Notes: generated by a model from the sequence alone, not told the origin. A DNA stretch of 32,000 nt from Candidatus Saccharimonadota bacterium (GCA_965231145.1 OZ246420.1:210001-242000); one strand, 5' to 3'. Positions 1-32,000 are shown, counted from the first letter of the stretch. Translations and numbers: made by a program.

Positions 1-1592
1 GTCTTACCGAACTTATGCAATCATCAGACCTTGCAAATATGCTCAATCTGAAGGAGAGATGACCTTATATCTTCGATGAAGATGGAAGAGTAACCACGGT
101 AAATAAGGTTTCAACGAAGAAAGAATATGCAGAAGATGCAGCAGGCGCTCAAGAATATATGAAAGATCAGAGTAAGAAGATGCTTGAAGATATAGATGCT
201 TCATTTAAGGAATATGCAAGTAGAATAGAAGCCAGCTATGAAGCTAATCAAGATGCGCTTTCTGGCATGACTCCTGCAGATGCAGACTATAACAAAGTGC
301 AGAAGGAGATCGCGAATATTGCTGTTCGTCAACAGACGCTTGCTGGTAAGCAGACTATTACCAATGAGATGCTCACTGCTATGCAGGCATTTCTACGTAA
401 TGCAGATGCAAATGCGTTTAATACTGAAATAAAGCGTATTCATGCCGCCATAAGAAAAGAAAAGGAAAAAAGCGATAAGGCTATTTCTGATGCTCAAAAA
501 ATTATTAAGGCACAAGAAACAATAAAAGCAACATCGAAAAAATCTCTTGATGAAGTAAATGCTAAGCTTGCAAAGCTCAATCCTACCGATAAGGGCTATG
601 CTACATTAACTGCTGAAAGACTTACTGCGGAGACAGAGAGAAATAATACAAGAGCAGTTTTGAGAAATGCTGAAGATGCGATCCTAACAAGTGTTTCAGC
701 AAAACAAAAACTTGAAAGAAAGAGAGATAGCAAAGAACAAGAAGTGAAAGAGTTAAAGAAGAAGGCGGAAAGAAAGATAGAGTACAATGATGTTATGGAT
801 AAGTTAAGTGAGATTGATAAGGATTTGGCTAAGAAAAGAGCAGAACTTGCTAATGTGAGATCTGCAGAAAGAAATGACAATGCAGGATATAATAACAATA
901 AAAATAAGGGTAAAAATCAAACTTCTCCAGAAGTTGCTACTCTTACCAAGGCTATCAATGATCTCGAAGCGCAAGAGAGAAGACTACAAAATATCGCATA
1001 CAATGGACTAGCTATCGCAGATGCAGATTATGAAACAGATCTCAAGGCTGCGCAAATAGAGCTCACTGATTTTGAAGATCAAATCACTGACAATGAAACT
1101 CAGCATAAGCAACTCATTAAAGATAAAGATGCTGCTCAGGATGCCTACGACAAAGCTGTTCAGGAACTTGCGAAGATAGATGCTCAGCTTACATCGAAGA
1201 TGTCAGGAGACAAGGGCTATGCAGAACTTATTGCAGATAGAGCTATCCATGAAGCTGCAATTTCTACTGCAGATGCTACTATCTCTACTCAGCAAAAAAT
1301 TATAGACAAAGAAGCTCAGGCTTGAGTAGTTCATTCTGACTTCTATAGAATGTCTACCAGAATGGAAGGATTTGCAAAGAATGCAAAACACAATGTAGAT
1401 ACCAATCTTATTGCAGATCCAGCAACATATATGAAAGAAATCCAAAAACTTCTCGCTGATTTCAATGGTTACATTATTAGTAAGAAGGCAGCTTGATCAT
1501 CAACAGATAAGATTGATCGTATTAAAGCGATTGTTAGCAGAACAGATATAGATGAACAGGTAAAGGCAGATCTTATAGCCAATCTGAAATAA
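1..1592 (+). CDS. Large coiled-coil protein of unknown function; 5' end lies outside the window
   Basis: ORF-track piece 159..1325 continues in the same frame (codons start at multiples of 3) upstream to the window edge and downstream to TAA 1590-1592. It is interrupted only by TGA at 60-62, 1323-1325 and 1494-1496. The protein is Lys/Glu/Ala/Gln-rich with heptad-like composition. It has an internal duplication: ADADY motifs (DNA 276-290 and 1017-1031) and DKGYA motifs (DNA 588-601 and 1209-1222). Confidence 0.7.
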
Positions 1593-1619
1593 TACATTTA
1601 CTTATCTTTCCATAAGACT

Positions 1620-2699
1620 ATGTCTCTTTGGCGTCGTAATACTACACCACCAGCACTTCCATGAGGAACTCCTAACGGACCTTCTAGAGGAAGACAAGCC
1701 CGAAATAACGTAAAAATGAAAACATCCAATGCTATTGGATCTGTTTTCAATGCTGGGAAAAAAGCTGGGAAAGCAGTTGTGCAGACGGGAAAAGATGTTG
1801 GTAATCGAACAGGAGAAAAATTGACAGATTATAAAAATAAAGATAAAACACGAACTAATGAAGAGCTTGACGCGTATTTGCAGGCTCAGCGTTTAATTAT
1901 AGAAACATATCCTCAGCATGTTACCTTTGAACCTCTCAGATCTCATGGCGTGCTTCAAGGATTTGAATCCAATCAACTTCCTTACAGTTTGCATATTGTT
2001 GATCAGATTAAGGAAGGAACTGACATCTACTATGTAGTCCAACAGGTTGATAAAGTAACTTGAAAGAAAGGTAAATATGCTTTTGTAAATCAGCAAGGCA
2101 TGAGTCTTACTTTACAGAGCGCAACTCATGGTACGATATGACCATTGTTTTTTCATGATTATGAATTTGTAGATCAGCAACATGTAAGAGTGCAGTGATC
2201 TCCAAGTGGGCCATATGAAACAGCAGCTCTTGATCTTTCATCTGTGCCAGCTGCACCAGTGCCAAGTTCATATCAGACTGCTGTAGCACAAGGTATCTAC
2301 AATAAGAACTTTCCAGAGAATCAGGTGTTTATTGTGAAGTACAGAACTCTTATGAGGCAACTCAATACTTTCTTAGGCAATGATATACTTACTGTTACAT
2401 CAAATCTGACTCCCCAGCAAAGGAGAAATCTTGATATTGATGCCGAGCCTTATTTTGTACAATGGAGGACTTTGCTAGATGAATTTACAACTACTAATGG
2501 GGGATTTTATCGCGATCTTGTCGGCTACTATCCTAGCAAACATCAACAATTTGATTATTATAAGAACTATATGGAAACTATGTGGACAAGAAGAACTGAG
2601 CTAAGGAAGAATAGTGATATTGCGAGAGCTGTTTATATCAATAGTATACAGGCGCAGTTCAAAAATATGTTTCACGCTCTCACAGGAGAAAGACTCTAA
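1620..2699 (+). CDS. Hypothetical protein (359 aa) with a basic Gly/Pro-rich N-terminus
   Basis: ATG 1620 to TAA 2697-2699. It joins ORF-track pieces 1716..2063 and 2244..2699 (same frame) through TGA at 1662-1664, 2061-2063, 2139-2141 and 2196-2198. I recognise no motif. Confidence 0.6.
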
Positions 2700-2723
2700 T
2701 ATATTTACCTAGCTATAACTACC

Positions 2724-3623
2724 ATGGCAAAAAACGTTCCACTTTGACCGAAAGAAAATACAGCTGATGCAGCTGCTTCTAAAGGAGCTAAGATCGTAGA
2801 ACTCGCTCAAAAAGAGATGGTTGATAATTTGAAGCAACAAGAAAAAGTGGAGAAAGGTGAAATTAAGGCTTTAGAAAAAGAGAAGGTCTCTGTAGATGCA
2901 GATCTCGATGCCCAAATTGCTAAAAAGAAGGCTCATCTTATTGAACTTTCAAAGATGGAAGATCAAGTTGTCGCAGAGATGAAGGAAGATAAGAAGCCGT
3001 CAGCAAAGAAAGAAAAAAAATGGGATTTCAATCCGCTCAATTGGGTGAGACATATAGGAACAAGAGCGCTTTCTGGTATCGGAGGATTTCCATACAGACT
3101 CGGTGCAAAGATACAACATATTGTGGCAAGACCTCAGCAATTATGGAGTAAACAGTTTTATAAGGATATTGGAAAAAATATTCTGAAGACTCCTAAGGCA
3201 ATGCTTACTACTATTACTGGGGCGCTTTATAAGCCACATCGTGATAGCGTGAAGTTTGAAGATAGTTTTAAGGACTATGGTCCTGAATTTGCCAATCCTA
3301 CCGATAAGAGCAAGGTGGTAAGATTTGGAAAGAAGGCGCTTTGGACAGCTGGTAAAGTTGCAGCGCCTCTTGGAGGAGGAGTATTTGCTTTGGCTCCTAA
3401 GTTCTTTGCCAATATTGGAAGAGGTATGAAACATGTTGTTCACGAGGCTCTTGAAGGTGTAAGAGATTCGAAATTTCACTGGAATCCTATGAAATGGAAC
3501 CTTAAGTCGTGGAAGTTTACTAAGACAAAAGAAGCATTTGGTAAAGCATTTTCATGGAATAAGAAAGGTACTCCGGCTGGCAAAACAGTGGAAATGCCAA
3601 AAGAGCATAAGAAAGCAGCTTAG
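2724..3623 (+). CDS. Hypothetical protein (299 aa): N-terminal coiled coil plus a Lys/Trp/Phe/Gly-rich C-terminal half
   Basis: ATG 2724 with TGA at 2745-2747, then ORF-track piece 2817..3623 in the same frame, ending TAG 3621-3623. A W-x-x-N-P-x-x-W motif occurs twice (WDFNPLNW and FHWNPMKW). A strong terminator follows. Confidence 0.6.
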
Positions 3624-3638
3624 TAGAGGCTTTCATTG

Positions 3639-3688: not shown

Positions 3689-4126
3689 ATGAGTGAATTC
3701 TCCGCTTTAGTCCAAAGCTATTATCAAAATCCTGTAAACAATCGCGCCATGCCAGACGCGACAATTTCTCGTCATGAAGGAAATTCACTCTGCTGAGACG
3801 ACCTCACAGTTTATCTCAAGATAAACGCTAATTCAGAATTCAAAATTCAGAATTCAAAATTAATTATTGAAGATCGAAGTTATGATGGTATGCCGAGCAT
3901 GATTACGCAGGCTGCAGCAAGTTTCTTTTCCGAATTAATTATTGGTAAGACTCTCGAAGAAGTATTACACATGAATGAGCATACGATGAAAGACAATGAT
4001 TTCATTGTCTCGCCAAGACGCAGAAGAGCGTCGGTAATTGCTATCCTTGCCACAAGGAATGCGATACATGCTTATCTGAAAGATGGCAAAGAGGATAGGT
4101 TTGAGGACTTACTTGTTGAGCAATAA
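3689..4126 (+). CDS. IscU/SufU/NifU-like Fe-S scaffold homolog, degenerate (only the first conserved Cys retained)
   Basis: ATG 3689 to TAA 4124-4126. The N-terminus reads YYQNPVNNRAM...GNSLC-G-DDLTVYLKI, where the Gly of the family C-G-D motif is TGA 3794-3796. The C-terminal part (ORF-track 3890..4126) resembles the scaffold helix region (ITQAAASFFSELIIGKTLEE). The positions of the 2nd and 3rd Cys read GMPSM and RRASV. Confidence 0.6.
3830..3864 (+). repeat. Tandem heptamer array AATTCAG AATTCAA AATTCAG AATTCAA AATTAAT inside the IscU-like ORF
   Basis: Read directly from the sequence. It is a 14-nt unit repeated 2.5 times, 7-nt phased, and contains two EcoRI-type GAATTC palindromes. It encodes NSEFKIQNSKLII, which looks like extra sequence relative to the usual CGD...GC spacing of the family. 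Confidence 0.85.
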
Positions 4127-4129
4127 AAA

Positions 4130-4150
4130 AACCTCAAATATTCTGAGGTT
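4130..4150. terminator. Hairpin between convergent genes; a good terminator for the minus-strand gene
   Basis: AACCTCA (4130-4136) pairs with TGAGGTT (4144-4150), 7-nt loop. The A-run at 4124-4131 becomes a U-run after the hairpin on the minus-strand transcript. There is no T-run on the plus side. Confidence 0.65.
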
Positions 4151-4655
4151 AGAGTTCTAATAAATTGTACACGATATTTCGTATTTTTTCGTTCTCCTTT
4201 ATCTTTCTTGCTATATTGTGAGCAAGTACGGTCTCTACATCAGAAAGAACCTCTTTAGGAGTAAAAAATAAATACTTTTCTAGTTTCTCCCTTAAAACAG
4301 TAGGATTGTTATACGCATCTAACACTTCCTTCAGTAATGGATTATTATGACTTGCTACGGCAAATAATTTCATTCTAAGCTCTTCATTTATTATTTGTCC
4401 ATCTTCTGTAGTAGCAGATATAATGCTTGTAATGCTAAGAAAGGAAGAGTATGAAATTATTGGAAAACAAGATAATAATTTTGTTGCAGACGCAGCCCCT
4501 AAACATGCATTCGCTTTCTCAAAGGACAAGATATAAGATGATTTTACTCCGGTTTTTTTAGTTACATCTTGATAAGCATAGTTGTGTGTTTCGCGTATTT
4601 TACGAAACAGTTCGCCCAGAGCTACTCCTAAAGGATGCTTTTCTTTGTTTTTCAT
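4149..4655 (-). CDS. Hypothetical protein with a possible XRE-like helix-turn-helix N-terminus
   Basis: Uninterrupted 168-aa ORF ending TAA (4149-4151). The N-terminal LGELFRKIRETHNYAYQDVTKKTGVKSSYILSFEKA resembles the HTH_3/XRE pattern. The remainder is unrecognised. Confidence 0.45.
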   Translation of the reverse strand: MKNKEKHPLGVALGELFRKIRETHNYAYQDVTKKTGVKSSYILSFEKANACLGAASATKLLSCFPIISYSSFLSITSIISATTEDGQIINEELRMKLFAVASHNNPLLKEVLDAYNNPTVLREKLEKYLFFTPKEVLSDVETVLAHNIARKIKENEKIRNIVYNLLEL

Positions 4656-4730
4656 ATTTTTAGTTTGTTTTGTTTTGTTTATTGTAATTATAAAGCTAAA
4701 AAAGTCAACTTATGTGGACGTAGTTTAATA

Positions 4731-4759: not shown

Positions 4760-4790
4760 TCTTATACTATTTACGTTTTTAAGAAAAATT

Positions 4791-7700
4791 ATGTCATTTA
4801 CACCACAGCAACCGAAGCCGAATCTGTACGAGATCGACCAACTAGTACTCAAATGATGGAAAGATAATCATATTTTTCAGAAATCTATTGAGCAGAGACC
4901 GGAGGATCAACCATATCGTTTTTACGATGGACCTCCGTTTATTACAGGGCTTCCTCACTATGGGCATCTTGCGGCTTCTATTGCGAAAGATGCAGTGCCA
5001 AGATATTGGACGATGAAAGGGAAAAGAGTAGACCGTGTCTGGGGATGGGACTGTCATGGTATTCCTATTGAACAAAAGGTGCAGTCAAAGCTTGGACTTG
5101 AGTCAAATGTGGATATCGAAAAGGTCGGTATTGAGCGCTTTATCGAAGAGTGTTATAATTATACTCGTGGTGTTTCTGCAGACTGGAACTACTATATCGA
5201 AAATATTGGGCGCTGGGTAGATATGGATAAGCCATATCGTACTATGGATAATGACTACATGGAATCTGTCTGGCGAGTGTTCAAATCTCTCTGGGAGAAG
5301 GGTCTTATCTATAAGGGTAAGCGTGTTTCTATGTACTCAACAAAGCTTGAGACACCAATCTCTAGCTTCGAAGTAGCTATGGACGATACGTACAACGACA
5401 TCAGTGATCCAACAGTAACCGTGATGTTTGATCTTTCTGCAAATGGAGATCAATGGAAAGATACGTATGTGCTTGCATGGACGACAACGCCGTGGACGAT
5501 CCCTACAAATATTGGGCTCGCTCTCAATAAAGATCTTTCATATGCTAAAGTCATTGCTGATGGTAGTACATTTATCGTTGCAGAGAAGAGAGTAGAAGAG
5601 ATATTTAAGGGTAGAGTATTTGAGATTGTTGAAACGTTTACAGGAGAAAAGCTTGTAGGGCTTTCATATAAACCGCCGTTTGATTACCTCTATGGTAAGA
5701 CAAACAATGACAAAGATCATAAGATCTATCATGCGGACTTCATTACAGATGAGGATGGTACAGGCATTGCTCATGAAGCACCTGAGTTTGGTGACGTAGA
5801 CTTCCAGCTTGCTCAGCAGGTTGGTATGACTATTACGGAAGCAATGGACAGTAGTGGACATTATACTTCGCTTCTTGCTGATATGCAGGGGATGTTCTAT
5901 CGTGATGCAAATCCAGTAGTTATGGAAAGGCTTCAGTCGATGGGAAGACTTTTTGCAAAAGGTAATATTACTCACCGTGTGGCATTCTGTCCAAGAACAA
6001 ATACGCCGCTTGTGTATAAAGCGCAAGACAGCTGGTTCGTCAATATCCAATCTCTCAAGCCAAGACTGATCGAAAAAAATGAAGAGATCAATTGGTATCC
6101 GGCTCACTTTAAACACGGACGTTTTCTGAAATCTATTGAATCAGCACCGGATCGGTGCATATCTCGTACGAGATATTGGGGTACGCCAATGCCTATCTAT
6201 GCGCCAGAAGAAGTAGTAAGATCGGGAAGCGTGAAGACAGATGATATGATCATTATCGGGTCAAGAGAAGAGCTCTATGAGTTAAGTAAAGAAGGAAGTA
6301 AGAATCTTGAAAAAAGAACAATTGATGGGAAAGAAGTCTATTGGAATATGACAAGAGACGCTGAGCTTGATATGCATCGCCCATATATCGATGATGTCTG
6401 GCTGATGAAAGATGGGAAGAAGTATGTTCGTATCCCTGAGGTGCTTGACTGCTGGGTAGAGTCTGCAAGTATGCCATATGCGCAGGTGCATTATCCATTT
6501 GAGAACAAGGAAAAATTTGAAGGACAGTTCCCGGCTGATTATATCGTAGAGTATACAGGTCAGATACGTGCATGGTTTTATGTGATGCATGTTTTAGGTG
6601 TCGCTCTCTTTGATAAGCCTGCTTTCCGTAACGTAAATGTAACATGAGTGCTTGCTGGAAATGATGGGCGTAAGATGTCGAAGTCATATGGAAACTATCC
6701 GGATCCAAGACTCTCATTTGAAAACTATGGAGGAGATGCCATCAGAATGTTTATGCTGACATCAAACCTTTTCTCTGCAGGAGATCCTGCAACATCAGAT
6801 GAGCTTTTCGCAGAGGCGCTGAGAGGTTATATTCTTCCTTTGTGGAATGCATTCTACTTCTTCGTGACGTACGCGAACATTGATAAGTGGGATAAGAGAG
6901 ATGAAGTATATGCTATTGAAAACATTGCTCATCCGCTTGATAGATTCTTATACGCGAAAGTACAAGAGCTTATCACTACTGTAGATGAGAGCATGCAGGC
7001 ATATGATCTTATGCGTTCATCTCGTGCACTTGGTTCATTCTTAGATGATCTCACTAACTGGTATATACGTCGTAGTAGAAGAAGATTCCGGAAAGAAGAG
7101 CATGATGCGGACAAAGATAATGCGTATGCAACGCTCTATTATGCCCTTGTCAACTTCTGTCAAGTTGCTGCTCCATTCATGCCTTTTGTGACTGAGTACA
7201 TGTATCAAATGCTTACAGGAAAAGAGTCTGTACATCTCACGGACTGGCCAGTAGCTCATTTACAGGAGAGTGATAAAGCACTTATTGCAAAAACAAAGCA
7301 GGCTCAGGATATTATCTCTATAGTTCTCGCTGCGCGTTCAAGAAAAACCATTCGTGTGCGTCAGCCATTACAGTCGATAACCATCGGTGTGGAAGTTGAT
7401 GAGTACTTCAAAGAGATCATCGCTGATGAGTGTAATGTGAAACAAGTTAACATAGATACATCTATAAACTCTCTGGTAACAAAGATCTGTAAGCCAGATG
7501 GTAAGTACGTCGGTGAGACCTTTGGAGCAAAGACCAAAGAAATCTTTGCTGCTGCTAAGTCAGGAAGCTTTAGCGAGAATGCAGATGGTAGTATTACTGT
7601 TGCATGAGAAACGCTTCCTGTATGAACATATGAAATAAGTTATATTAAGACAGATGCAAAAGAAGATATAGATGTTGATAACGGTATTGTGGTGAAAGCA

Positions 7701-7976
7701 GATTGGACTATTACGCCAGAGCTTGAGCTCGAAGGATATGCAAGAGATCTCGTAAGATTTATCCAAGATGGACGTAAAGAAGCTGATTACGATCTCGCTG
7801 ACAGAATTAAATTGAGTATCACAGGAGATCATCTTGCGCTCTCATTGATTGAAAAATTCAAAGAGTACATTCAAGATGAGACTCTGTCTACTATTGTCGA
7901 GATTATAGAAACTCCTGATCTTTCGAAAGAAACTCAGATAGGAGGACAAACTATTATCTTCAGTATCAAAAAATAA
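4791..7976 (+). CDS. ileS: Isoleucyl-tRNA synthetase, type 2 (1061 aa)
   Basis: Motifs seen: HYGH (4956-4967), WGWDCHGIP and KMSKS (6672-6686). ORF-track pieces 4995..6647, 6648..7607 and 7689..7976 share one frame. They are joined by TGA at 6645-6647, 7605-7607 and 7623-7625, with another TGA at 4854-4856. The gene ends TAA 7974-7976. Confidence 0.95.
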
Positions 7977-8030: not shown

Positions 8031-8588
8031 TTACTGAGTGTATTTCGGAAGAGCGTATAGCGTATCCATTTCAGAAGTTTGTACGCGTATGATGTTTTCT
8101 GCAAGTGCTTTTACTTCAGGATGCAGCTCAAGCTTGAGTGCCTGCTGCGCCATATCAATGGCGCCTTTATGATGGTCTAGCATACCCTGGATATATAAGT
8201 TATCACGTCAGATGCCTGTTGAACCTGTAAGAGAAGGCATCATGTTCATGTAGTTGCTTGAAGTTTGTTTGCCAGCATATCGCTGATCAAGCCGGCCTTT
8301 CATAAGGGCGATCTCCTGGGTTTGGCCGGAGATAATATTTGCTGTGAGCGTTTTGAGTTCCTCATTGGTTGTGCCTGAGAGCACGATAAGAGACGTATCT
8401 ATGGCTTCCTGATGATGTGGTATCATTTGGGTGAGAAAGTCTTGTTCTGAAGTGATAACTTGGTGATGCATAGTCATCTCAGGATTCTTTTTATGCTGTC
8501 AGAACATAAGATCATCCTTTTTTTTACCACATCCAGCAAGGGTGAGGGCTACTGCCATGACAGAAAGCACAACAAGAGTTTTTTTCAT
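8031..8588 (-). CDS. DUF305-family lipoprotein (two HH-containing repeats)
   Basis: ATG at 8588. The signal peptide MKKTLVVLSVMAVALTLAGC has a lipobox (LAGC). Two DUF305-like motifs are present, MIPHHQEAID and MLDHHKGAIDM. ORF-track piece 8208..8477 is extended through TGA at 8208-8210 and 8502-8504. The gene ends TAA (8031-8033). Confidence 0.75.
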
Positions 8589-8612: not shown

Positions 8613-9179
8613 TTACTGCACTAGTATGTGTTGTGGGAGATTTGTATACGGTATATATATTCTGTCTTCATACGAAGGGCCCTTGAGGCCAAGAGCATCT
8701 GTAAGGATAAGCGTTCACCATGATCTTTCGATATAAAGATGCTGTGATTCCAATCCTATATCAACAAGATGCCATGTCGTCTCATTTGTTCATGTGACAG
8801 AAACTACCTCATGAAACCCTGCATCGATCTGTAATTGCATATCTCCTGTAGTAAGAGTAGATCCGCTTGCTGCCATCATCTCCTGGAATATCGTCGTCCG
8901 ATAAGCTCTAAAATAACTAGCATAGTCACCTGATCGCACTGTCACGATAAAGCAGGAATCATCATTTTCCCTCAGGCAAGTATGGGTATTTTTTGCTCAT
9001 GAGACAGCGACCATATGGCCCGAAGAAAGCGTAAAAGCTGCTCCTGAGAACGTCCAGACTGGCTTTGGTGCGATAATAATTCTTCACTCTTCGGGGGTTG
9101 GGACATTTATATCATAGGTGAAAACTATGAACAATGCTATCACTACTATTACGATGGCGGCCCAATACCGTTTTTTCAT
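8613..9179 (-). CDS. Hypothetical membrane-anchored protein (188 aa)
   Basis: ATG at 9179 gives the signal-anchor MKKRYWAAIVIVVIALFIVF. The frame stays open through four TGAs (including 9084-9086) to TAA (8613-8615). It lies 24 nt upstream of the DUF305 gene on the same strand. Confidence 0.55.
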
Positions 9180-9287
9180 GGAGAGAAAAGAAGGGGTAAA
9201 ACTATGTTCAATGTATCTAAATACTACCATAATACAAAGAATTTGCCATATATAAGCCGCATAATACTCATTTGTCAACCTCATTTT

Positions 9288-9343: not shown

Positions 9344-10999
9344 ATGCGGGGATTTCTTGCGGGCTTGGGCATCTTTCTTCTGGGGATAAAACTTATGGAA
9401 GAAACACTGATGCATGGTTCTATCGCGACTTTGAAGAGGATTTTGAAATCGTACACCAATACCATGCGAAAAGCGGTGGTATCTGGTACGATTGTTTCTA
9501 CGATAGCGCAAAGCAGCACGATAGTTTCAGTCATGACTGTAGCGTTCGTAGGCGCCGGAGTCATATCTCTGGCAAGTGGAGTAGGTGTGATTATCGGTGC
9601 GAACATTGGTTCGACAGTGCTTGGTCTCGTGCTGGGTAGTGTGGTTGGGGCCTCACTCAAACTATCTGCATTTGCTTTACCGATGATCGCTATAGGATGA
9701 GTAGGCGAGCTTTTCTTCAGGAAGAAGAAAACTATCTATCTTATCACGAAATCTCTCTTCTCTTTGTGACTTATTTTCTATGGAATTAGTCTTCTCAATG
9801 ATGTTGTTTCAGTCTATGCGTATAGCATCGATCTTGCGCAGTTTGGAGCGCGAGGCATCTTTGGATATGCCCTTATTGGAGTGCTTCTTACTGCGCTTAT
9901 GCATTCGAGCGATGCGATGCTTATCCTTGCATTGACGTTTCTTGCACAAGGTATTATTGGCTTTCCTGAGGCTATAGCGCTTATCATCGGTGCCAACCTA
10001 GGAACGACAATTAGCGCGATCGAAGCGTCTGTTTCAGGGAGTTCCGAACAAAAGCAAATTGCTCTGAGTCATTTCCTGTTCAATCTTATATCTGCGATCA
10101 TAGCGCTTCCTTTGCTCTATCCAAGTATTCATTTGCTTGATCGAATGTTTGAACTGCCTCGCCAAAATGTTATGGCGCTGGTGATCTATGATGTAATTTA
10201 CAATATCGCAGGAGCGATCTTGTTCTATCCATTTCTAGGTTATTTTGTTCAACTTTTAAAGCGTCTTGTCCCACAAAAGTGAGCTGATTTTGTCTTACAT
10301 AGTTCGCATATTGTCATAGGTGCACACCTGGAAAAAGCTATCTCGTCATTCACAGAAGATGTGATAACGCTCATGAAAAAGGTATATGTCTTCAATGCGA
10401 AGGCTTTGGCTATTGATACGAAAATACTGCAAGATAAGGATAGTTCACTCGAAACGAAATATGGAGCTATTAAAAAGATAGACAATGAAAACCTTGAGCA
10501 GGAGTACAATACCATCTCAACCATAGAGGAGTCGCTGATGCAGTTTGTTATGAAAATATTTCAAAAACATAAAGATCAATCTGCGCAGTATCATACGACG
10601 TTGTTTGTCCTTCGTGAAGCGATAGAGCGTATCGTCTATAGCGCCAAAACCCTGTGGGATAGTAAAGGGATCCTCGATGAACTTCGTGACAGTAAGATGT
10701 CGCTTATCGATGAATATCTCCGCCAGTTTACGAAGGAGATGATTGATTTTTATGTTGTGATCGGGGCATACCTTACTGCTACTGAAACTGATACACAAAG
10801 AAAACATCTCCAAAAATACTTCCAGGAACTTACTACTGCCGACGAACATTTCCTTAACGTCATTAGTGATACATTGCCCCAGGAAGTGCTTTCTAACCGT
10901 CAACTGGCAGCGCTGCTGCATCTGTCCCAAGCTCTTAACAGATCTCATAAGGCGATGCTTCATACAGTGAACTTACTCTATCCAGGGAGAACAAAATAA
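9344..10999 (+). CDS. Na+/phosphate cotransporter (NptA/YjbB-like) with a C-terminal PhoU-like domain
   Basis: GLGIFLLGIKLMEETL and the second-repeat IIGANLGTT motifs are typical of Na/Pi cotransporter family repeats. Pieces 9272..9700, 9881..10282 and 10361..10999 share one frame, joined by TGA at 9698-9700, 9767-9769 and 10280-10282. The helical tail resembles PhoU. The gene ends TAA 10997-10999. Confidence 0.8.
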
Positions 11000-11024
11000 A
11001 AAACGCCCCTACGGGCGTTTTTTT
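10998..11024. terminator. Bidirectional rho-independent terminator (Na/Pi transporter on plus, pth on minus)
   Basis: ACGCCC (11003-11008) pairs with GGGCGT (11013-11018), loop CTAC, flanked by an A-run and T7. Confidence 0.85.
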
Positions 11025-11553: not shown

Positions 11554-11557
11554 GTTC

Positions 11558-12199: not shown

Positions 12200-12202
12200 A
12201 TA

Positions 12203-22001: not shown

Positions 22002-23474
22002 TTACTGTATCAGGATTCCAGCTGAGAAAGCTGCCCATGATTCGTGGTTTGTCTTTACGATGAATGTCTTTGTTGCGTCAGCGCTTTCGACTACTGCATA
22101 GCTTGGAAGCTTTGCTTTGATCTCTTCTACTGTAAGCTTTGTTACACACTCATAGATTTCCACCCCAGGTGCAACTGATGTGTTGTCTCTGTCGTTATAT
22201 GATTTTACTTGTATGTCTACGTAGCAGTTTGTCTTCTCAAGTCCGAAATCTTCATCGAGATTCACCCCCTCGAAGCTGATCTTTTGTGAAGGAAAGAAGA
22301 TAGAGTAGTTTCCTCTGTTGGAAACAAACATATAACCTGTTGCTGTTGGTCCAGGAACTTTTCCTACTGTTGTTGGAAGTGTTGGCTGGGTTGGAGTGCT
22401 TCCAGTATTTGGAGTTGCCGTTGTTCCTGTCGTTGGAGCAGTAGTTCCTTCGTTGCTGATGATGTAGTTTGTCAGCGTCATATTCTCCTGATGCTCACTA
22501 AATGTTGTCGAGAGGATACATGTTACTTTCTTTCCATCAGTATCTGTTCCTTCAGCAGTGGTAGTCCATGTGTTGCCTTTTGCTGTCGTTGTCTGTTTTG
22601 TAATAGTAGAAAGTCTTGATGTCGCATTGTAGCAGAAGTTAGATGCTTGTGCTGATACGCGAGTCTCAATATATTTTGTATTCAATGGGAAGATATACGC
22701 GGATGCCTTATAGAAGAAAGCATCCTTTGGTACGTCTACCATGTATCCCATGTTATCATTGTTTGAGAACCACTTTGTCGTTTCTGGAAGTCTATAGAAA
22801 GTCATGCCTTGGCTGTTCGTGAACTGTTCTCCTGCTTGTGCTGATGTCTTGATTTGCTGGCAGTCTTTGAGAGGGTCGCTCTTCTGGCATGTGAAGTAGG
22901 TAATAGTGATAGTATCTCCACTCATACTTGATGCTGTATCTGCGATCGTGATCGCATTTCCGTTGGTAGTGACAGCGAGCGGTGATGTGTGTGCACTGAC
23001 GTCTACGAGAAGGTTTGCGTCGGCGATGTATGTTTTCGCATTTGATGAGTCTGTTGTGAGAGCTGTGTTTGTGTCGCTTGTGATAAATGACACATCGATA
23101 ACATACATATTTCCTTCATAGCTGTTCACGGTTCCTTTGACAGATACTTTACCGTTGTAGTTCCCGATAGAAGTCTTTGTGCTTATAAGACCTACTTTTT
23201 CGTTACTTGCAAGCTGGAGGATATATGAGTACTTAAGCTGGTCACTTGAAGGCTGGAGTTCTCCCGAAAGGATTACCTCTTTGCCAACATACATGCTGCT
23301 GAGCATACTTTGCCCGCTTATCATGTTTTCACCAGTTCCAGTTGTATTATTATTTTCCTGTATTTTTGATCCTGTCTTTTGCAGATACCAAAGTCCAATC
23401 GCAATGATCCCGAGAACCAGGATAAGTGCTACGAGCGGTGCTCATCATTTCTTGTTTTTTCTTTTCATCGCCAT
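22002..23474 (-). CDS. Membrane-anchored, Thr/Ser/Pro-rich putative surface protein (about 490 aa)
   Basis: ORF-track 22002..23324 extends upstream through two adjacent TGAs (23445-23450) to ATG 23474 or 23468. The N-terminus is M(AM)KRKNKK-G-G-APLVALILVLGIIAIGLWYL (TM anchor). A linker TTAPTTGTTATPNTGSTPTQPTLPTT follows. I recognise no catalytic motif. The gene ends TAA 22002-22004. Confidence 0.65.
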
Positions 23475-23661: not shown

Positions 23662-23946
23662 TTACGCTTTAATGCTTAGTGACTTAATAATAATAAAGAC
23701 AATCAGAGCTGTAATGAGAAAATCAATACATCTTGCTAAAAGTCTTCCATAGAGAATTCCTCTCCACGAGAGCTCATTGAGCTTTTCTATCTTGAGTTTT
23801 TTCATGGTTGGAGCGAGGATGGCTGGCGTCAAAAGGTCTTCCACAAATGATTTTACTACGTCGCTTACTTTTGCAGCTACTAACAGACCAATGGCAAGTC
23901 CGATGATGTTGTTTTTCAGAACGAAATCGATAAATTCCTGTAACAT
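23662..23946 (-). CDS. mscL: Large-conductance mechanosensitive channel MscL-like (94 aa, short)
   Basis: MLQEFIDFVLKNNIIGLAIGLLVAAKVSDVVKSFVEDLLTP matches the MscL N-terminus and TM1 pattern (MLKEFKEF..GNV.DLAVGVIIG). A second TM helix is present at the C-terminus. The gene ends TAA. Confidence 0.75.
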   Translation of the reverse strand: MLQEFIDFVLKNNIIGLAIGLLVAAKVSDVVKSFVEDLLTPAILAPTMKKLKIEKLNELSWRGILYGRLLARCIDFLITALIVFIIIKSLSIKA

Positions 23947-23984: not shown

Positions 23985-24431
23985 ATGTCTTTCAGCGATA
24001 AAAACAAGACTAATCGAAACCATATTGGTACGGTGTCTCTTATCATCTTGCTGGTTGGTGTCGATCTTCTCACAAAATGGCTTATTTTTTCTACAAGGCC
24101 CGACGGGGTCGGGCCGCGGCTCACTCCTATCATCAATCCTGGAGCAGCGCGATCGTTGCAGATAGGAGTTCCCCTTCTTATACTTATTGCTGCGGTGGTA
24201 TGTATCGCGCTCATCGTCATCTATGAGAAGAAATGAATGAGTAGATGGGCATTTATACTTATCATGGCATGAGCGCTGGGAAATCTCTACGATCGTATTG
24301 TTTTTGGATGAGTGAGAGATTTCATCTCTCTCAGCACATTTCCCGTCTTCAATGTCGCTGATATACTCATTACCTGTGGGGTGTTGTTGTTAGCGTTACA
24401 GTACAGAAGAGAAGCAAGGAAAAATAGGTAA
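23985..24431 (+). CDS. lspA: Lipoprotein signal peptidase II (148 aa)
   Basis: A-G-ALGNLYDRIVFG-G-VRDFISL...FPVFNVADILI carries the LspA N-x-x-D-R and FN-x-AD motifs. TGAs lie at 24234-24236, 24270-24272 and 24309-24311. I prefer ATG 23985 over the track's TTG 23946, which overlaps the mscL start. The gene ends TAA 24429-24431. Confidence 0.88.
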
Positions 24432-24529: not shown

Positions 24530-25468
24530 ATGGAAAACGTAGTAATCATAGGATGAGGACCAGCAGGAAATAGTGCGGCTATTTATGCGGCGCGTGCAAA
24601 TTTGAACCCAATTATGTTTGAAGGGTTTTATGCAGGTGGTATGGCTCCTGGAGGCCAATTGACAACGACAACGGAAGTGGAAAACTATCCTGGTTATACG
24701 AGTATCAACGGTCCTGAGCTTATGATGAAGATGCGCGAGCAGGCGATACATTGCGGAGCTCGCATTGAGACGAAGACAGTTGATATGGTTGATCTTTCCG
24801 TATGGCCCTATAAGGTAACACTTGGTAGCGAAGTGATTGAGGCTAAGACGATCATCATCACAACAGGAGCTACAGCAAAGCGTATGGGTGTGCCAGGTGA
24901 AGATACATTTTGGCAAAAGGGTATCAGCGCTTGTGCAGTGTGTGACGGTGCGCTTCCTATCTTCCGTAACAACCCTGTTGTCGTTGTTGGTGGAGGAGAT
25001 GTTGCGTGTGAAGAAGCGATGCATATGGCAAAATTTGCAAGTCATGTTTCTCTTCTCGTGAGACGTGATGTCATGCGTGCTTCAAAAGCGATGCAAGAAA
25101 GAGTCATGAATAATCCTAAGATCACAGTTATGTGGAATACAGAGCTTCTCGAAGCACATGGAGAACAAACACTCCAGCAGCTCAAGATCGTGAACAATCA
25201 GACAAAAGAAGAAACGATGATTGATGCTAAGGGACTCTTCTACGCGATTGGTCATACGCCAAATACAGCGTTTCTGCAAAACCAGATCGAGCTCGATGAT
25301 ATGGGTTATATAAAGACAGTTCCTGGAACTACAAAGACAAGTAAAGACGGAGTCTTTGCAGCAGGAGACGTACAAGATCATATCTATCGTCAGGCTATTA
25401 CCTCAGCAGGAACGGGCTGCATGGCAGCGCTCGATGCCGAGAGGTGGCTCGGAGAACATAGCAACTAA
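24530..25468 (+). CDS. trxB: Thioredoxin reductase (312 aa)
   Basis: MENVVIIG-G-GPAGNSAAIYAARA is the FAD GxGxxG motif, with TGA 24554-24556 as a motif Gly. The redox CAVC lies at 24932-24943. The second dinucleotide motif is VVVGGGDVACEEA. The C-terminal GVFAAGDV is present. The gene ends TAA. Confidence 0.95.
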
Positions 25469-25677: not shown

Positions 25678-28600
25678 ATGACCTTGTGTACTGATCAGCT
25701 AATACGTACGTTACAAGCAAACGACGGCCTCAAAGAGGACGTAATTTCTGGCCGTGTGACGATTGGTGATCTGGCAACGAAAGCGTGGTGAAGCGCTGGT
25801 AAACCGATCTGTTATAAAGAATTTTGAGAAATTTATAAGATACGTGACTATGTACAGTCTGTCAATCTCGATGCTGTGATAGATGCAGGTGTGCAGGTAG
25901 ATACTGGTGTGAAACTGACAGGTTCTACGAGTGCAGGATTTTCTTTTCCATGGTTTCAGTGAGAGCAGTTCAGAGAGTATCTGAATATGGCTGGCTTGGT
26001 TGTCGGTGGAATGATTGCTATCCTCATAGCATGGAAACTTATCAGAGGACTGTTTATTTTCCTGTACGATGTGCTCAATGCATGGCGTACTGTTTATCTT
26101 CGTGTCATCCTTCCGCGTGGTGATGATAAGATCTCGCGTGAACAAGATAAGGACGTGGCAAAAGATATGAAGGAAAAACTGTCACGTATGGGGCAGGTGT
26201 ATGAGGCACTTCATAAGCTTGGACATTCATCACTTCGTGATAGTACGATGAATTTTCTTTTCCGTAAGCCAAAGGTAACTACTATCTGGCAGTATGAAAA
26301 AGGGCTTCTTCACTGTATCATAGGTGTCTATCCTGAATATAAGAAGATCGTAGAGTCGGCTGTCGCAGCTCAGTTTCCGGACGCATCGATAGAAAGTCTC
26401 GATAAGAGACCAGCGTTTTTCTCGAAGAAGCATTCAAATATTGCTGTCATGGAGACGGAGAGAAGTTCGATCTATCCGATCAAGACATTTAAACAAATGT
26501 CAGACGATCCGATCAATGATCTTATCGATACGATGGGGAAGATGTCGACAGAGGATACGTTTAGTATCGTCATGCCGCTCAAACCAGCAAGCGATGCGTT
26601 CAATAAAAAGGCTAAGAAATGGGCAACAGGTCTGTATAGAAGAGATGAATTTTATGTCAAATGAGGTCATACGTATCGATGGAAATGGCTTATTCCGCCC
26701 TACCGGATATGGGCATTGATCGTTTTCCTGATTAAGTGAGTCAAGAAAAAGGGTGAGCATGATACGATGCAATCGGGTGGAAAAGATATGGTGCGTATGA
26801 CTAAGGCAGAAGAAGATGCTCTCAATATCATGGGTGAAGAAGCCGGAAAACACGCTTTTGAAACAGCTATTTTTCTTATCTCTTCATCAGACGATGCAGA
26901 TCGTGCCGTACAAAATATCAATAACATGGAAGCGGTCTTTACGATCTATCGCGATGAGTTCAACAATGAATTAGATAATAATAACCTTAAGACTGACGCA
27001 CTTGGTTTCTTCTTTAAGCCGCTTTGGAAGTTCGCTGCAAGATTTTGACTGTGTCATTTCTTCTTCAAGAAGACGATCATGACTCCAAATGCACTGACAT
27101 CGCTTTTCCATATGCCCGATGGTATCTATAATCGTTCGCCTATTATAAAGTGGCTCGACTATAAGATGCTTGCAGCGCCGGATAATCTTCCGAAGCTCAA
27201 AGATCCAACAGATTATATCATTACTGGAGTTATCGCTGAGCAATATATGGGTGGTAAGATCGAGAAACTATTTGCTGAAAACGAAAGCTGGGCAGTAGGT
27301 TCGAAGCAGGAAGAAGTGGTAGAGCTTCTCGACTATGTTCCTGGATATAAGCCGCAGCTAGGTGAGACTATTGTAGAAACAACTGACGGTAAAAAACATA
27401 TTGAAAGAAGGGTAAATGTAACGAAAAAGGGTTTGCGTGTCTTTAAAGACGGAGTACTTCTTGGTGTTAATGTGTATCGTAATACCTATACGCCGATCTA
27501 TATGCTGAAGAAAGATAGAACAAGACATTACTATATCGTCGGAAAATCAGGTACAGGTAAGTCGGTATTTATCGATTCGCTTGCACGTCAGGATATCTGG
27601 GCTGGTAATGGTTGTTGTGTGATCGATCCGCATGGAGACCTTGTGGAAAGCATATTGCAATACATACCAAAGGAGAGAGCAAAAGATGTTGTGTACTTTG
27701 ATGCCGGAAATGAAGAGCGTCCGATGGGTCTCAATCTCTATGAGATCTCGTCTGTTGACCAGTCAGATCGTATTGTAAACGATGCGACGGAAATGTTCTT
27801 GAAGATGTTCGGTCCGGAAATCTTCGGTCCACGTATCCAGGAGTACTTTAAGTATGGTTCCCTGACACTGCTTGAAGACTTGGAAGATCCGGCAACGCTT
27901 ATTGACGTGCCAAGACTCTTTACGGATGAGACATATAGAGACTACAAAGTGAAGAAGGTTAAAAATCCGGTGGTGAGAAACTTCTGGGAAAAGACATATA
28001 ATGCGATTGGTGATCGTGAAAAGCAAGAAATCATCCCATACTTCACATCAAAATTCGTATCATTTATTACTAACTCATTGATCCGTAATATCATCGGACA
28101 AACGAAGTCAGCGTTTAACTTTAGACAGATTATGGACGAAGGAAAAATCCTTCTCGTTAATCTCTCGAAGGGTAAGATCGGTGAGCTCAATGCACAGCTT
28201 CTTGGTATGATCCTTGTGTCGAACATTTATAATGCAGCGATGTCTCGTCAGGATATCGATGAAGATAAGCGTAGAGATTTCTATCTGTACGTCGACGAGT
28301 TCCAGAACTTTGTAACCAATACCTTTGCAGACATCTTGTCAGAAGCTCGTAAGTATAAGCTGTCGCTTATCATGGCGCATCAGTACATCGCGCAGCTTGA
28401 TGGTGGAGGAAGTAACAATATCGGTGAATCATCCGGCGGTAAAAAGTCAGTGAAAGATGCTGTGTTCGGTAACGTGGGTACGATGCAATCATTTAAGATC
28501 GGTGCACCCGATGCAGAGTTCCTCGAGAAAGAGTATGCTCCTGTACTGAGTGCTCAGGACATTGTATGAATAGCGAACTATAAAGCATATATTAAACTGA

Positions 28601-28971
28601 ACATCAATAACTCAACATCGCGTGTCTTCAGTATGAATGCGATCGGAACAACCGACTATCAGAACAAGAAAGCAGCTGCTATATTGCAAGAATACAGCGC
28701 GAAAAAGTATGGTCGTAAGAAAGAGTTCGTTGAAGCTGAGATACAAGCAAGGCTTGGGATACTTACCTCAGATCCTACGGAACCAAATTTACAAAGCACA
28801 GATTCATCTGCCGCGGTAGATCAAAATTCACAATCAAATACGGAGTGATCATCAATAACTCCAGCGACTAATAATCCAGAGCCAGTAACAAATATTCCAA
28901 CAGATACTGCTCCTGCGAGTACAGAGAGTACGCCGCCGGCAGAGGCGCCATCTGCGTCAGCAAACATATAA
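25678..28971 (+). CDS. TraD/TrwB/VirD4-like (T4SS coupling-protein family) P-loop ATPase with a long N-terminal membrane/unknown region and a low-complexity tail (up to 1097 aa)
   Basis: Pieces 25987.., 26767.., 27079.. and 28633.. share one frame, joined only by TGA (26662, 26737, 27046, 28567 and 28846). Walker A GKSGTGKS lies at 27541-27564, followed by VIDPHGDL. Walker B YLYVDEFQN lies at 28282-28308, followed by SEARKYKLSLIMAHQY. A TM segment MAGLVVGGMIAILIAWKLI lies at 25987. The start is uncertain (ATG 25678 or ATG 25987). The gene ends TAA 28969-28971. Confidence 0.75.
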
Positions 28972-29091: not shown

Positions 29092-30069
29092 ATGCAGTTT
29101 GATGTTATCATCCCAACAAGAGGAGACATTCAAAATATTCTCAGGATCCTCTGAGCGATAGAGAAGCAAACGGTTATGCCGCAGCATATTTTTCTTATTG
29201 TCGATAAACACTTTTCTTCGGCCGATGAACTCAATGCTTTTGCCATGCAGGCATGTGGCGTCTTTTCTGATGCACTGACGAGCAGATTGAAGCCGGTAAA
29301 CAATATTGACTATGATTTTGTTGCGGGTAACGGAGCAAGCTATGTGAGAAACTATGGTATTAGCTTAGCGAAGTCAGAGTATGTCTATCTTCTTGATGAC
29401 GATAATACTTTTGGCGAAAGCTTCTTTGCTCATACGATTGATGAATGCGGATTGCTCAGTGAGAAGCAGGACGTATTGTACTCTCCAACAGTGATGTGGC
29501 GTGAAACGAGTCGCGTACAGTCAGTGGGTATAAGAACATTTCACTATCTGCTTGGCCGGCCGGAAGCTATGATCGGAGGTCGGAAGACAAAGCTTCTTGG
29601 AGCAATTCTCTGACCGCTTCTGCTCAAAGCTCGCAGCGATAACTATTTCTACTATCCACAGATGATTGGAGCAAATTCATTATTTGGAAAGAGGAGTTAT
29701 TTCAGAGAACTCAGATTTGATGAGCGTATGAAATTTGCATTTGAAGATCTCGATCTGACGCATAGATGGCAGCGTACGATAGGAGACATTGTGGTGAGTA
29801 AGCACAATAAGATTTACCATATGGAAAGAGATAAAACGAAGGCAGAGCAGTCGTTTATCGCGACACCGGAAGGTGTCTATGAGAAGACAAAAAATCGTAT
29901 CTTGTTCGTGAAGAGTAATGCTAAACGATGGCAGAAAATGTTATTTTTTTGATGTGGGTTATGGATTAACACTGTATGGTTTATTGTATTTATTCTCTTT
30001 GCTGGAAAGCAGAAAGGAAAATTGCTGTATGGATTAATGCGTGGGTTAAGAGATGGTTTTAGCCTGTAA
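29092..30069 (+). CDS. Family 2 glycosyltransferase with a C-terminal TM segment (325 aa)
   Basis: MQFDVIIPTRGD...IFLIVDK and YLLDDDN match the GT2 N-terminal and DxD pattern. Pieces 29176.. and 29662.. share one frame, joined by TGA 29611-29613. Further TGAs lie at 29152-29154 and 29950-29952. The gene ends TAA 30067-30069. Confidence 0.75.
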
Positions 30070-30077
30070 TAGATGTC

Positions 30078-30887
30078 ATGAGAGATCATAATCTGCAATT
30101 GCCTGACTATGAGGAGCTTCAACATATTCTCGATAAAGAAGCAGTCAGAGAAGTAACCGTAGAAAAACATAGTCTACATTATGTTAATTTTTCTCCGATT
30201 ATAGATTTCTGTACAGTAGTTGGTCTTTCTACAGACTACTTTACTCACCGACAAGAAAGAAAAGATTTGCAGGATCCACTTTTCTGGCAACAATTAAAAC
30301 AATTGGAGTCTGATTGTCTCGATGCATTGTGAAATTATAGCTGACCTCAAGAAGTTCTTGATAGGCTCTGGGATTATCTCTCTGAGGAAGATGCTGTACA
30401 AAAGGCTGATATGATCATGGTGTTTGGCGCGCCTTGAACATTGAGAATAGATAAGGCGATAGAACTCTATACTGCTGGATATGCAGAGAAAATATTACTC
30501 ACATGAAAAGGACCGGTTCGAGGAACCGCAGAGATCTCCGAAGCAGAAGCATGGCACGCATATGCTCTAGAAAAAGGTGTTCCAGCAGAAGCTATGCTAC
30601 TGGAGAAAAACTCGATCTCTATTCCTGACAATGTGAAGTCGAGCCTTAATATGCTTGATGCGTTGTATATGAATGTAAAATCTATGATTCTTGTAACGTC
30701 GCCTTATGCGCTGAGAAGAACATATTCTTATATGCAGAAATTTCTCCATACAAAAGTCGCTGTGTACAGACTAGCGGCAGGTTCAAAGTATACGAAAGAA
30801 AATTGGTATATGACCCCAGAAGGGCAGAAAGTAATTGTAAATGAGTATATCAAACTGAAAGTGAGTGAGCTGCTCAATACGGTCTAG
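30078..30887 (+). CDS. DUF218 (YdcF/ElyC/SanA-like) domain protein with an ~85-aa N-terminal extension (269 aa)
   Basis: ADMIMVFGAP-G-TLRIDKAIELYTAGYAEKILLT-G-KGP...SEAEAWHAYALEKGVPAEAMLLEKNSISIPDN...ILVTSPYALRR matches the DUF218 pattern. Pieces 30078.. and 30594.. share one frame, joined through four TGAs. The gene ends TAG 30885-30887. Confidence 0.7.
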
Positions 30888-31271
30888 CTATTCTACTTTC
30901 TCAAACGTCAGAGAAAGCTGGAATGCTTTGTTCTTTAGTGGTATGCTCATCTCGATTCGTAATCCACCGTATTTTGAAGATCGTTCAAGAAGATTTTTAT
31001 TGAGTAGTGGCTCCTCATAGCACTCAGGAGAAAGTTTGTAGTCTACATTGAAGAACATGCATTTTACTCTGTCAAATCTTTCTACTTGTACAAATACCTG
31101 GCAGGGCACGTGTTCAGGAAATGTGTCCTCATCAACGAGCTTTAGTCGTCACTCTTTTTTCCATAGCAAAATATGATGGGGCTCAACTATAAACTCATCA
31201 CAGCTAAACATCATCTTTTCGGCTGCCTTCGAAGCATCCAGATCGTAGAGGACTTGGAGAAACATACTCAT
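30888..31271 (-). CDS. Hypothetical protein (127 aa)
   Basis: ATG at 31271. One in-frame TGA joins it to the GTG-started track piece 30888..31109. The gene ends TAG (30888-30890), directly abutting the stop of the convergent DUF218 gene. Confidence 0.5.
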
Positions 31272-31273
31272 TC

Positions 31274-31308
31274 AATTACGAATTAATAATGACGAATTAC
31301 GAATGAAA
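31274..31308. repeat. Tandem heptamer array AATTACG AATTAAT AATGACG AATTACG AATGAAA (no inverted partner)
   Basis: Read directly. It fills the 45-nt spacer between the BI-1-like gene stop (31317) and the next minus-strand start (31271). Confidence 0.75.
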
Positions 31309-31316
31309 TAATGAAT

Positions 31317-32000
31317 TTATCTTCTTTTGCCGAAGAGGCTCAATAATCTTAAGAAAAGATTGATGAAGTCGAGATAGAGGGTGAGTGCGCCTATGATAGA
31401 CTCTTTGCGACCTTCGTCGGTTCATTCGTTTCCGATAATGTTCATCGCTTTGAGTCTTTGAGTATCGTATGCTGTCAGCCCGGTAAAGATAAGTACAGCG
31501 ATGATAGAAATAACGTAGTCGGCCGCAGCGCTTCTCATGAACATGTTGATAAGACTTGCGATGATGATCCCGAACAGTCCCATGATGAGTATGCGTCCCA
31601 TACCAGAAAGATCCTGCTTAGTGAAAAATCCATATAAGCTCATGGCTGCAAACATGCCTGCGGTGATAAAGAAGACCGATACGATAGATGTTGCTGTGTA
31701 GACGAGAAAAATAACCGATAGAGTTAATCCTGTAGTAAAACAGTAGAGGAGAAAGAGAAATGTTGCGGTAGATACAGCCATCTTTTTGATCCATCCGGCG
31801 AGGCTGATGACGAGCCCAAGTTCGATGATGATCAGCGCTATTATAATAATATTATTTGAAAATATCAGCTCATAGATAGCTGAGGTAGTCGCTACCAGAT
31901 ACGCAGTCAGTCACGAAATGATAAGCCCTCCGCACATCCATGCATATACCTGCTGGAAAAATCTGCTTGTCTCCCTTACTCTCTGGTGATCAGTAATAAT
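31317..32000 (-). CDS. BAX inhibitor-1/YccA family membrane protein; 5' end lies outside the window
   Basis: FFQQVYAWMCGGL...TAYDTQRLKAM...GALTLYLDFINLFLRLL are typical Bax1-I family motifs. Track piece 31422..31781 extends through TGA at 31422-31424 and 31911-31913. The gene ends TAA 31317-31319. The frame is still open at the window edge. Confidence 0.85.

Follow-up and report, generated by a model that had tools for sequence, protein, structure and literature searches.

The 32,000-base stretch analysed here, hereafter the window (positions 210001-242000 of OZ246420.1, assembly GCA_965231145.1, deposited as Candidatus Saccharimonadota bacterium), does not follow the standard genetic code: TGA is a sense codon in its genes, and only TAA and TAG terminate them. 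UGA almost certainly encodes glycine, at 88 sites that amount to ~14% of all glycine codons, and CGA and CGG, together found at 41 sites and corresponding to ~28% of all tryptophan codons, are quite probably read as tryptophan. As a whole, the window very probably derives from the chromosome of an uncultured bacterium belonging to the SR1/Absconditabacteria-Gracilibacteria lineage (Patescibacteria), with a code that deviates from the standard one at UGA, CGA and CGG. A first-pass annotation, made by a model from the sequence alone, had assigned the window to NCBI translation table 25, in which UGA specifies glycine.

When TAA and TAG are taken as the sole stops, 26 non-overlapping genes account for 94.6% of the bases of the window, the G+C content (GC) of which is 40.7%. 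The 10,064 codons of these genes include 88 in-frame TGA, distributed over 24 of the 26 genes, and not a single internal TAA or TAG. When the same genes are read in their two off frames, the per-codon frequencies are 2.2% for TAA, 1.3% for TAG and 3.2% for TGA. The genes end in TAA (21) or TAG (five) and none in TGA, in agreement with the first-pass annotation. Releasing TGA from the set of three stops raises the coverage by long open reading frames (ORFs; at least 150 amino acids) from 59% to 95%, compared to 66% when TAG and 71% when TAA is released instead. With the TGA codons masked as X, Pfam domains continue uninterrupted across them in ileS, infB, cca, pth, the S41 protease and the Na/Pi transporter, and also span the masked positions in the Sulfatase-GDPD fusion, HIT, L9, lspA, trxB, DUF218 and Bax1-I proteins; for instance, tRNA-synt_1 extends over residues 33-674 of the isoleucyl-tRNA synthetase (IleRS) and Pept_tRNA_hydro over residues 30-202 of Pth.

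Public gene calls made with code 11 on identical Logan contigs illustrate the consequence. IF2 and IleRS are each split into three calls, only a 110-amino-acid tail of pth is called, HIT is represented by a 48-amino-acid piece without a Pfam match, and the interval 11355-12251, which contains a conserved gene for a 213-amino-acid protein (g11), is empty. Thus, a code-11 caller shatters or misses genes because UGA is a sense codon here, and both the systematic fragmentation of the ORF track and the loss of these particular genes, as described in the first-pass annotation, are borne out.

The identity of the amino acid specified by UGA can be approached through a related genome represented by Logan contig ERR7015365_1402 (L002), which is ~83% identical to the window at the nucleotide level and collinear with it over 2.9-14.2 kb, yielding 3,697 aligned codon pairs. 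TGA is paired with TGA in 10 of these and with a different codon in 36. Among the differing partners, 23 are GGN (GGA, GGT, GGC or GGG) and four are GCN alanine codons, with TGG, TAA and TAG found in 0 of the 36. By comparison, GGN is the differing partner of other codons in 45 of 3284 cases (Fisher p=4.5e-32). Solved structures of proteins from organisms using the standard code lead to the same amino acid: glycine is found opposite 14 of the 23 aligned TGA sites (binomial p 1.8e-10 at an assumed 8% glycine background), and tryptophan opposite 0 of the 23. The residues opposite TGA are Gln, Gly, Gly and Glu in IleRS, Ser in TrxR, Gly and Glu in Pth, Gly, Gly and Phe in the CCA enzyme, Gly, Lys and Phe in IF2 (with Asp in place of this Gly in a second structure), four Gly in CtpB (S41), Asn and Gly in L9, Ala, Gly and Glu in LspA, and two Gly in HIT.

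Alignment of IleRS with 59 homologues encoded by standard-code genes taken from GTDB genomes shows Gly in 59/59 at residue 633, where TGA (6645-6647) precedes the KMSKS motif. Among the 20 conserved Trp columns of the same alignment, 15 are encoded by TGG in the window and none by TGA, and positions 5040-5048, previously quoted as an example of TGG serving as a Trp codon, indeed read TGG GGA TGG; UGG remains a tryptophan codon. IleRS by itself is too thin for codon inference on TGA, as it offers 2 usable sites. Summed over 13 Pfam domains, the score is 1508.8 bits with TGA translated as Gly and 1452.2 bits with Trp, a loss of 56.6 bits. The earlier proposal of glycine rather than tryptophan is thus upheld by the codon partners, the structures and the domain scores alike.

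The first-pass annotation went further in placing the TGA codons on invariant glycines. All ten coordinates that it listed are TGA in the frame of the named gene, and the glycine is indeed conserved in pth, in the GGxVRD motif of cca, before KMSKS in IleRS, in the GKG motif of the S41 protease (21688-21690 and 21694-21696, the glycines of F-G-K-G, both Gly in CtpB) and in HIT. It is not in three other cases: the trxB codon is the first x of GxGxxG, with Ser in the best solved TrxR; residue 15 of L9 is Asn in the E. coli protein; and, of two solved IF2 structures, one has Gly and the other Asp opposite the codon at 13304-13306. The codon in the C-G-D motif of the IscU-like protein (3794-3796) was compared with L002 only, where it is GGG. 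Additional TGA codons occupy variable positions, such as IleRS residue 36 (Phe, Tyr or Arg in standard homologues), IF2 residue 795 (Phe or Tyr) and cca residue 320. Overall, the claim of invariance holds for about half of the TGAs. The variable positions leave the glycine assignment intact, because L002 has GGA at those IleRS and IF2 sites.

Database relatives of the CCA enzyme were considered as a further test of the glycine assignment, but their columns mix Gly and Trp, and we set them aside as circular, because the annotation pipelines had translated the relatives' own TGA codons by table 25 or table 4. At the GGxVRD glycine column, relatives P0001-P0120 show 64 Gly and 50 Trp. Evidently, many relatives from this clade have been deposited in public protein databases in table 4 translation, a systematic annotation error.

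The Trp residues at TGA columns in many database relatives could be taken to favour a table 4 type code, in which UGA stands for tryptophan, as it does in Mycoplasma and in certain insect endosymbionts; however, they reflect the translation applied by the pipelines and do not constitute independent evidence. Such a code is highly improbable for the window, given the complete lack of TGG partners in L002 and of Trp at the structurally aligned sites, the avoidance of conserved Trp columns of IleRS by TGA, and the poorer Pfam scores obtained with Trp. Furthermore, the tRNA-Trp gene adjoining the window has the anticodon CCA, the one expected of a tryptophan transfer RNA (tRNA) that must not read UGA. 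It is more remote still, to the point of being negligible, that there is no recoding at all and that the TGAs are to be explained by genuine termination in pseudogenes, by errors of sequencing, by selenocysteine insertion or by occasional read-through. The bare presence of in-frame TGA would be compatible with this explanation and nothing further speaks for it, whereas the contrast between 88 TGA and 0 TAA/TAG within genes, the involvement of essential genes (ileS, infB, pth and rplI), and the retention of TGA sites or their exchange with GGN in L002, in genes where the changes are mostly synonymous, all argue against it. Sequencing errors are also at odds with the fact that the identical sequence was assembled independently from several sequencing runs. 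A literature search for the runs ERR4405439, ERR4405440 and ERR7015365 found no paper that refers to them. As to selenocysteine, TGA is spread over nearly all genes, none of the sites is opposite Cys in the solved-structure alignments inspected, and an Rfam search of the window returned no match.

The second departure from the standard code concerns two codons that normally specify arginine. In the genes of the window, CGA occurs 26 times, CGG 15 times and TGG 104 times (25.5, 14.7 and 102 per 10,000 codons, respectively). Three of the conserved Trp columns of the IleRS alignment are occupied in the window by CGA or CGG, and these are all the CGA/CGG codons of ileS; in the 59 standard-code homologues, Trp makes up 98%, 100% and 88% of the three columns, and Arg 0%. 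The CGA at 5274..5276 (+) corresponds to Trp in 58/59 and to TGG in L002; the CGG at 6153..6155 (+), within the D-W-C-I-S-R motif, to Trp in 59/59; and the CGG at 7089..7091 (+), on the 88% Trp column, again to TGG in L002. By contrast, the columns of the 45 CGT/CGC/AGA codons of the same gene average 54-59% Arg and 0-3% Trp. Across the collinear region, TGG is the L002 partner of CGA/CGG in 9 of 11 differing pairs, AGG in one, and CGT, CGC and AGA in none, whereas TGG accounts for 1 of the 43 outside partners of CGT/CGC/AGA/AGG (p=1e-7). When every codon was screened against L002, TGA, CGA and TGG alone were flagged beyond trivial cases, with no further reassignments.

The same signal is found in broader comparisons. 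In 120 database relatives, the IleRS sites corresponding to CGA/CGG are 82% Trp and 16% Arg, and Trp is present in no more than 0.8% at sites of CGT/CGC or AGA/AGG. In all TGA-recoded genomes examined (L002, L004, L005, L018 and SR1 Aalborg_AAW-1), CGA/CGG stand on conserved Trp and never on conserved Arg columns, and the pattern is reversed in the standard-code genomes L006, L007, L010, L011 and L017. Translating the two CGA/CGG codons of the DUF305 protein as Trp yields a Pfam score of 110.7 bits compared to 100.7 bits for Arg, and the CGA codon of lspA (24150-24152), in the motif N-P-G-A-A-[W], is opposite Trp in S. aureus LspA. The comparison of translation tables against profiles recommended at first pass, carried out on the full-length ileS model TIGR00392, ranked table 25 (790.6 bits) above table 4 (782.9 bits), with the highest score, 804.6 bits, obtained when UGA is Gly and CGA/CGG are Trp. 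CGU, CGC, AGA and AGG, judged by their columns and partners, are predicted to remain arginine codons.

Several observations weigh against reading CGA/CGG as tryptophan. At some variable positions these codons are opposite Arg, Lys or Glu in standard homologues (pth 157, L9 75, S41 366), three Pfam domains drop by 1-2 bits under the Trp translation, and one CGA is paired with AGG in L002. Few sites at conserved positions carry the case (three in IleRS, two in DUF305 and one in LspA). Decoding of CGA/CGG may be ambiguous. Moreover, clades with CGA/CGG reassignment have been reported to have GC of 0.26-0.38, with CGG below 7 per 10,000 except in a single species (PMC8629427), and the GC of the window exceeds that range. 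Finally, there are no tRNA genes in the window, and ~60 kb of the same genome yielded no Trp-type tRNA(UCG/CCG) and, with regard to UGA, no tRNA-Gly(UCA).

The mixed residues opposite CGA/CGG in distant homologues, the small losses in the three domains, the CGA-AGG pair and the lack of a Trp-type tRNA within the ~60 kb reached would all fit plain table 25, under which UGA is glycine, CGA/CGG are still arginine, and the coincidences of Trp and Arg result from lineage-specific Trp-to-Arg substitutions. We consider this improbable. Trp-to-Arg is among the rarest of substitutions, yet it would have to be invoked for every CGA/CGG codon of ileS, each on a column of 88-100% Trp; swaps between CGY and AGR are common, and still 9 of the 11 differing L002 partners of CGA/CGG are TGG, with AGG once as the only other arginine codon. 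Nor does plain table 25 account for a pattern that is common to all recoded genomes examined and reversed in the standard-code ones, or for the gain of 10 bits (DUF305) and 14 bits (TIGR00392) with Trp. Of the first-pass assignment to table 25, UGA as glycine and TAA/TAG as the stops therefore stand, whereas the remaining codons are probably not all standard, since the 41 CGA/CGG behave as Trp.

How the reassigned codons would be decoded can be proposed from published work on the clade. Once release factor 2 had been lost, UGA would be read by a tRNA-Gly with the anticodon UCA (Campbell 2013 and Rinke 2013, cited in PMC8629427; also PMC4032931). Such a tRNA-Gly would be expected to carry G1:C72, C2:G71, G3:C70 and U73. 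CGA and CGG would be read by tRNA(UCG) and tRNA(CCG) bearing tryptophan identity elements, with tRNA(GCG) keeping CGU/CGC as arginine (PMC8629427). The tryptophan identity of these tRNAs would be marked by G73 together with the lack of A20. None of the decoding tRNAs was detected in the window, in ~28 kb of flanking Logan contig sequence or in the sequence reached for recoded relatives. The sole tRNA genes in ~60 kb of the same genome are tRNA-Lys(CUU) and tRNA-Trp(CCA), located side by side (L084 15631-15836) at ~32.7-32.9 kb, that is, ~0.7-0.9 kb past the right end of the window. The release factor gene prfB is not among the genes of the window, a result limited to these 32,000 bases.

The closest named relative of the window IleRS is that of candidate division SR1 bacterium Aalborg_AAW-1 (CP011268.1; 60% identity over 77% of the query), followed by proteins labelled Gracilibacteria or Absconditabacteria (51-59% identity). 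All named matches of the CCA enzyme are from Absconditabacterales or Absconditicoccaceae (40-43%). Among the matches listed for GTDB species representatives, the top IleRS (58%) belongs to a metagenome-assembled genome (MAG) labelled Peribacteria, which is recoded like the window. By these comparisons, the window is placed within the known clade with UGA as glycine and outside any named species, consistent with the SR1/Absconditabacteria kinship deduced previously; the episymbiotic or predatory lifestyle suggested along with it may apply by analogy with cultured relatives. Taxon labels and codes do not always coincide in this part of the tree: L004 (CAYWIJ010000019.1), labelled Peribacteria, is TGA-recoded and has CGA on Trp columns, and L010 (JAOZTS010000020.1), labelled Gracilibacteria, has no in-frame TGA in IleRS and CGA on Arg columns.

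The left end of the window is occupied by three genes, all on the plus strand: a partial gene with its 5' end outside the window, encoding a coiled-coil-like protein without a Pfam match (g1; 3..1592, +; three TGA), and genes for two unknown proteins, g2 (1620..2699, +; four TGA and three CGA) and g3 (2724..3623, +; one TGA). Together with the upstream sequence in L088/L089, positions 1-3623 belong to a run of genes of at least 15 kb without any Pfam match. There is no counterpart of g2 in L002, and that of g1 is ~31% identical. The g1-g3 region is a fast-evolving, lineage-specific block. Under the corrected code, significant Pfam matches are also lacking for g5, g8, g11, g18 and g24, and NCBIfam matches for g2, g5, g8, g11 and g24.

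Next to this block is the gene for a NifU_N/IscU-like protein (g4; 3689..4126, +), the Pfam score of which is 50.4 bits with its C-G-D codon (TGA 3794-3796) as Gly and 44.5 bits with Trp, and, on the opposite strand, a gene for a helix-turn-helix-like protein of 168 amino acids (g5; 4149..4655, -), the sole longer gene without TGA. A block of ~700 bp (4101-4800), comprising g5 and its upstream region and extending into the 5' end of ileS, is ~99% identical to L002, with flanking genes at 72-83%. This suggests that the block has recently recombined or been transferred between two SR1 species, or else that it is under unusually strong constraint.

The ileS gene (4791..7976, +; ATG at 4791, with the ORF open from 4749) contains four TGA and three CGA/CGG. 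In many relatives, IleRS is 1200-1600 amino acids long and carries added GNAT, His_Phos_1 or NUDIX domains, which are missing from the window protein; NCBIfam includes a model for IleRS with a GNAT domain. Downstream of ileS, two genes on the minus strand encode the DUF305 lipoprotein (g7; 8031..8588, -; two TGA), with CGG 8292-8294 and CGA 8280-8282 in the motif M-x-x-W-L-x-x-W, and an unknown membrane protein (g8; 8613..9284, -; four TGA and three CGA/CGG). They are followed by the Na/Pi cotransporter gene (g9; 9344..10999, +; three TGA and four CGA/CGG).

A further minus-strand group starts with pth (11023..11553, -), in which TGA 11530-11532 lies in VGL-G-NPG and corresponds to Gly in solved Pth structures. 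The adjacent g11 (11558..12199, -) encodes a conserved unknown protein of 213 amino acids; its six TGA (2.8% of codons) are all kept in L002, and it is not called by code 11. The identity between g11 and its L002 counterpart is 91% for both nucleotides and protein, with 30 synonymous and 19 non-synonymous codon differences, and exceeds that of the neighbouring pth and infB. The latter gene (12203..14635, -) contains five TGA. On the plus strand, cca encodes the CCA-adding enzyme with an HD domain (14755..16542, +) and includes ten TGA, that at 14860-14862 being the second Gly of GGxVRD. It is followed by a gene with nine TGA for the fusion of an LtaS-like Sulfatase and GDPD (g14; 16552..19116, +), and by the gene for the HIT family protein (19245..19631, +), in which TGA 19350-19352 is Gly in 3/3 solved homologues and a second TGA in 2/3.

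Further downstream, rplI, encoding L9 (19731..20183, +), has TGA 19773-19775 opposite the E. coli Asn, and a second TGA on the conserved Gly of G-K-L-F. The gene for the S41 C-terminal processing protease with a PDZ domain (20296..21885, +) has four TGA in its aligned part, all Gly in CtpB. An unknown secreted or membrane-anchored protein is encoded on the minus strand (g18; 22002..23474, -; two adjacent TGA). The apparent gap between g18 and lspA accommodates mscL (23662..23946, -; 94 amino acids), which matches MscL with 71 bits. The lspA gene (23985..24431, +) contains three TGA, one on a conserved Gly, in addition to its CGA, and trxB (24530..25468, +) the TGA at 24554-24556 within GxGxxG.

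In the right part of the window, g21 (25678..28971, +; eight TGA and two CGA/CGG) encodes a VirD4/TraG/HerA-like ATPase of 1097 amino acids, with weak matches to TrwB_AAD_bind, DUF87 and TraG-D_C and an N-terminal DUF8128, which hints at a coupling protein for type IV secretion or DNA uptake. The remaining genes encode a family 2 glycosyltransferase (g22; 29092..30069, +; three TGA and three CGA/CGG), a DUF218 protein (g23; 30078..30887, +; four TGA and two CGA), an unknown ORF for which the support as a gene is weak (g24; 30888..31271, -) and a Bax1-I family membrane protein (g26; 31317..32000, -; two TGA), with its 5' end outside the window.

For annotation, codes 11 and 4 are unsuitable for this contig, and table 25 is needed yet insufficient, as it would mistranslate 41 codons, writing Arg for Trp at ~0.4% of residues, including conserved motifs of IleRS and DUF305 and one LspA site. 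It is likely that the window uses a three-codon code (UGA as glycine, CGA/CGG as tryptophan) which corresponds to no NCBI table and which, in its GC and its share of tryptophan codons, lies beyond the range described for GC and CGG. If so, the reassignment from Arg to Trp would be fixed and the new codons would be spreading again, rather than persisting as a relic of rare codons, and public annotations of the clade made with table 25 or table 4 would hold systematic Arg-for-Trp errors, to which table 4 adds Trp for Gly. The codon swaps with L002 provide direct evidence, independent of profile methods, for the interchange of CGA/CGG and UGG in the SR1 lineage, and so support a sense-codon reassignment that has thus far rested on a computational screen. 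No new question is raised by these results, because both code changes have already been described for the clade.

Compared to known codes, the window resembles table 25, the code of SR1 and Gracilibacteria (PMC8629427; Hanke 2014, PMC4032931), with which it shares the lineage, UGA as glycine, UGG as tryptophan and UAA/UAG as the only stops, but it differs in the Trp-like behaviour of CGA/CGG, which are Arg in table 25. The resemblance to table 4 of Mycoplasma/Spiroplasma is limited to UGA being a sense codon and to the fragmentation of genes by code 11; the lineage is unrelated, and UGA in the window is glycine rather than tryptophan. Among sequenced genomes, SR1 Aalborg_AAW-1 (GCA_001007975.1) shows the same traits, with 23 in-frame TGA in ileS and five CGA on conserved Trp columns, although, apart from the moderate identity of the two IleRS proteins, it differs in local gene order, in the GC of the locus (35.5%) and in the extra GNAT domain of its IleRS (L091 10001-13738). 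The use of TGA in the window ileS is modest, with four codons; Aalborg_AAW-1 has 23, and the Absconditabacteria MAG L005 has 41.

The window matches the Absconditabacteria code predicted by Codetta, in which CGA/CGG are tryptophan codons (Shulgina and Eddy 2021; PMC8629427), a prediction taken up by a single later paper in the literature searched. The same three codons are reassigned with the same meanings, and arginine is encoded mainly by AGA and CGU. The window differs in its GC of 40.7%, above the 0.26-0.38 range, and in its CGG frequency of 14.7 per 10,000 compared to less than 7 for every species except one, two figures that were counted differently (all codons of the 26 genes versus Pfam-aligned columns). 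The kind of evidence also differs, consisting here of codons exchanged at individual sites between two related genomes, in place of a profile screen. Glycine for UGA is well established and tryptophan for CGA/CGG has been predicted, and the window extends slightly beyond the published range in its GC and its frequency of CGG.

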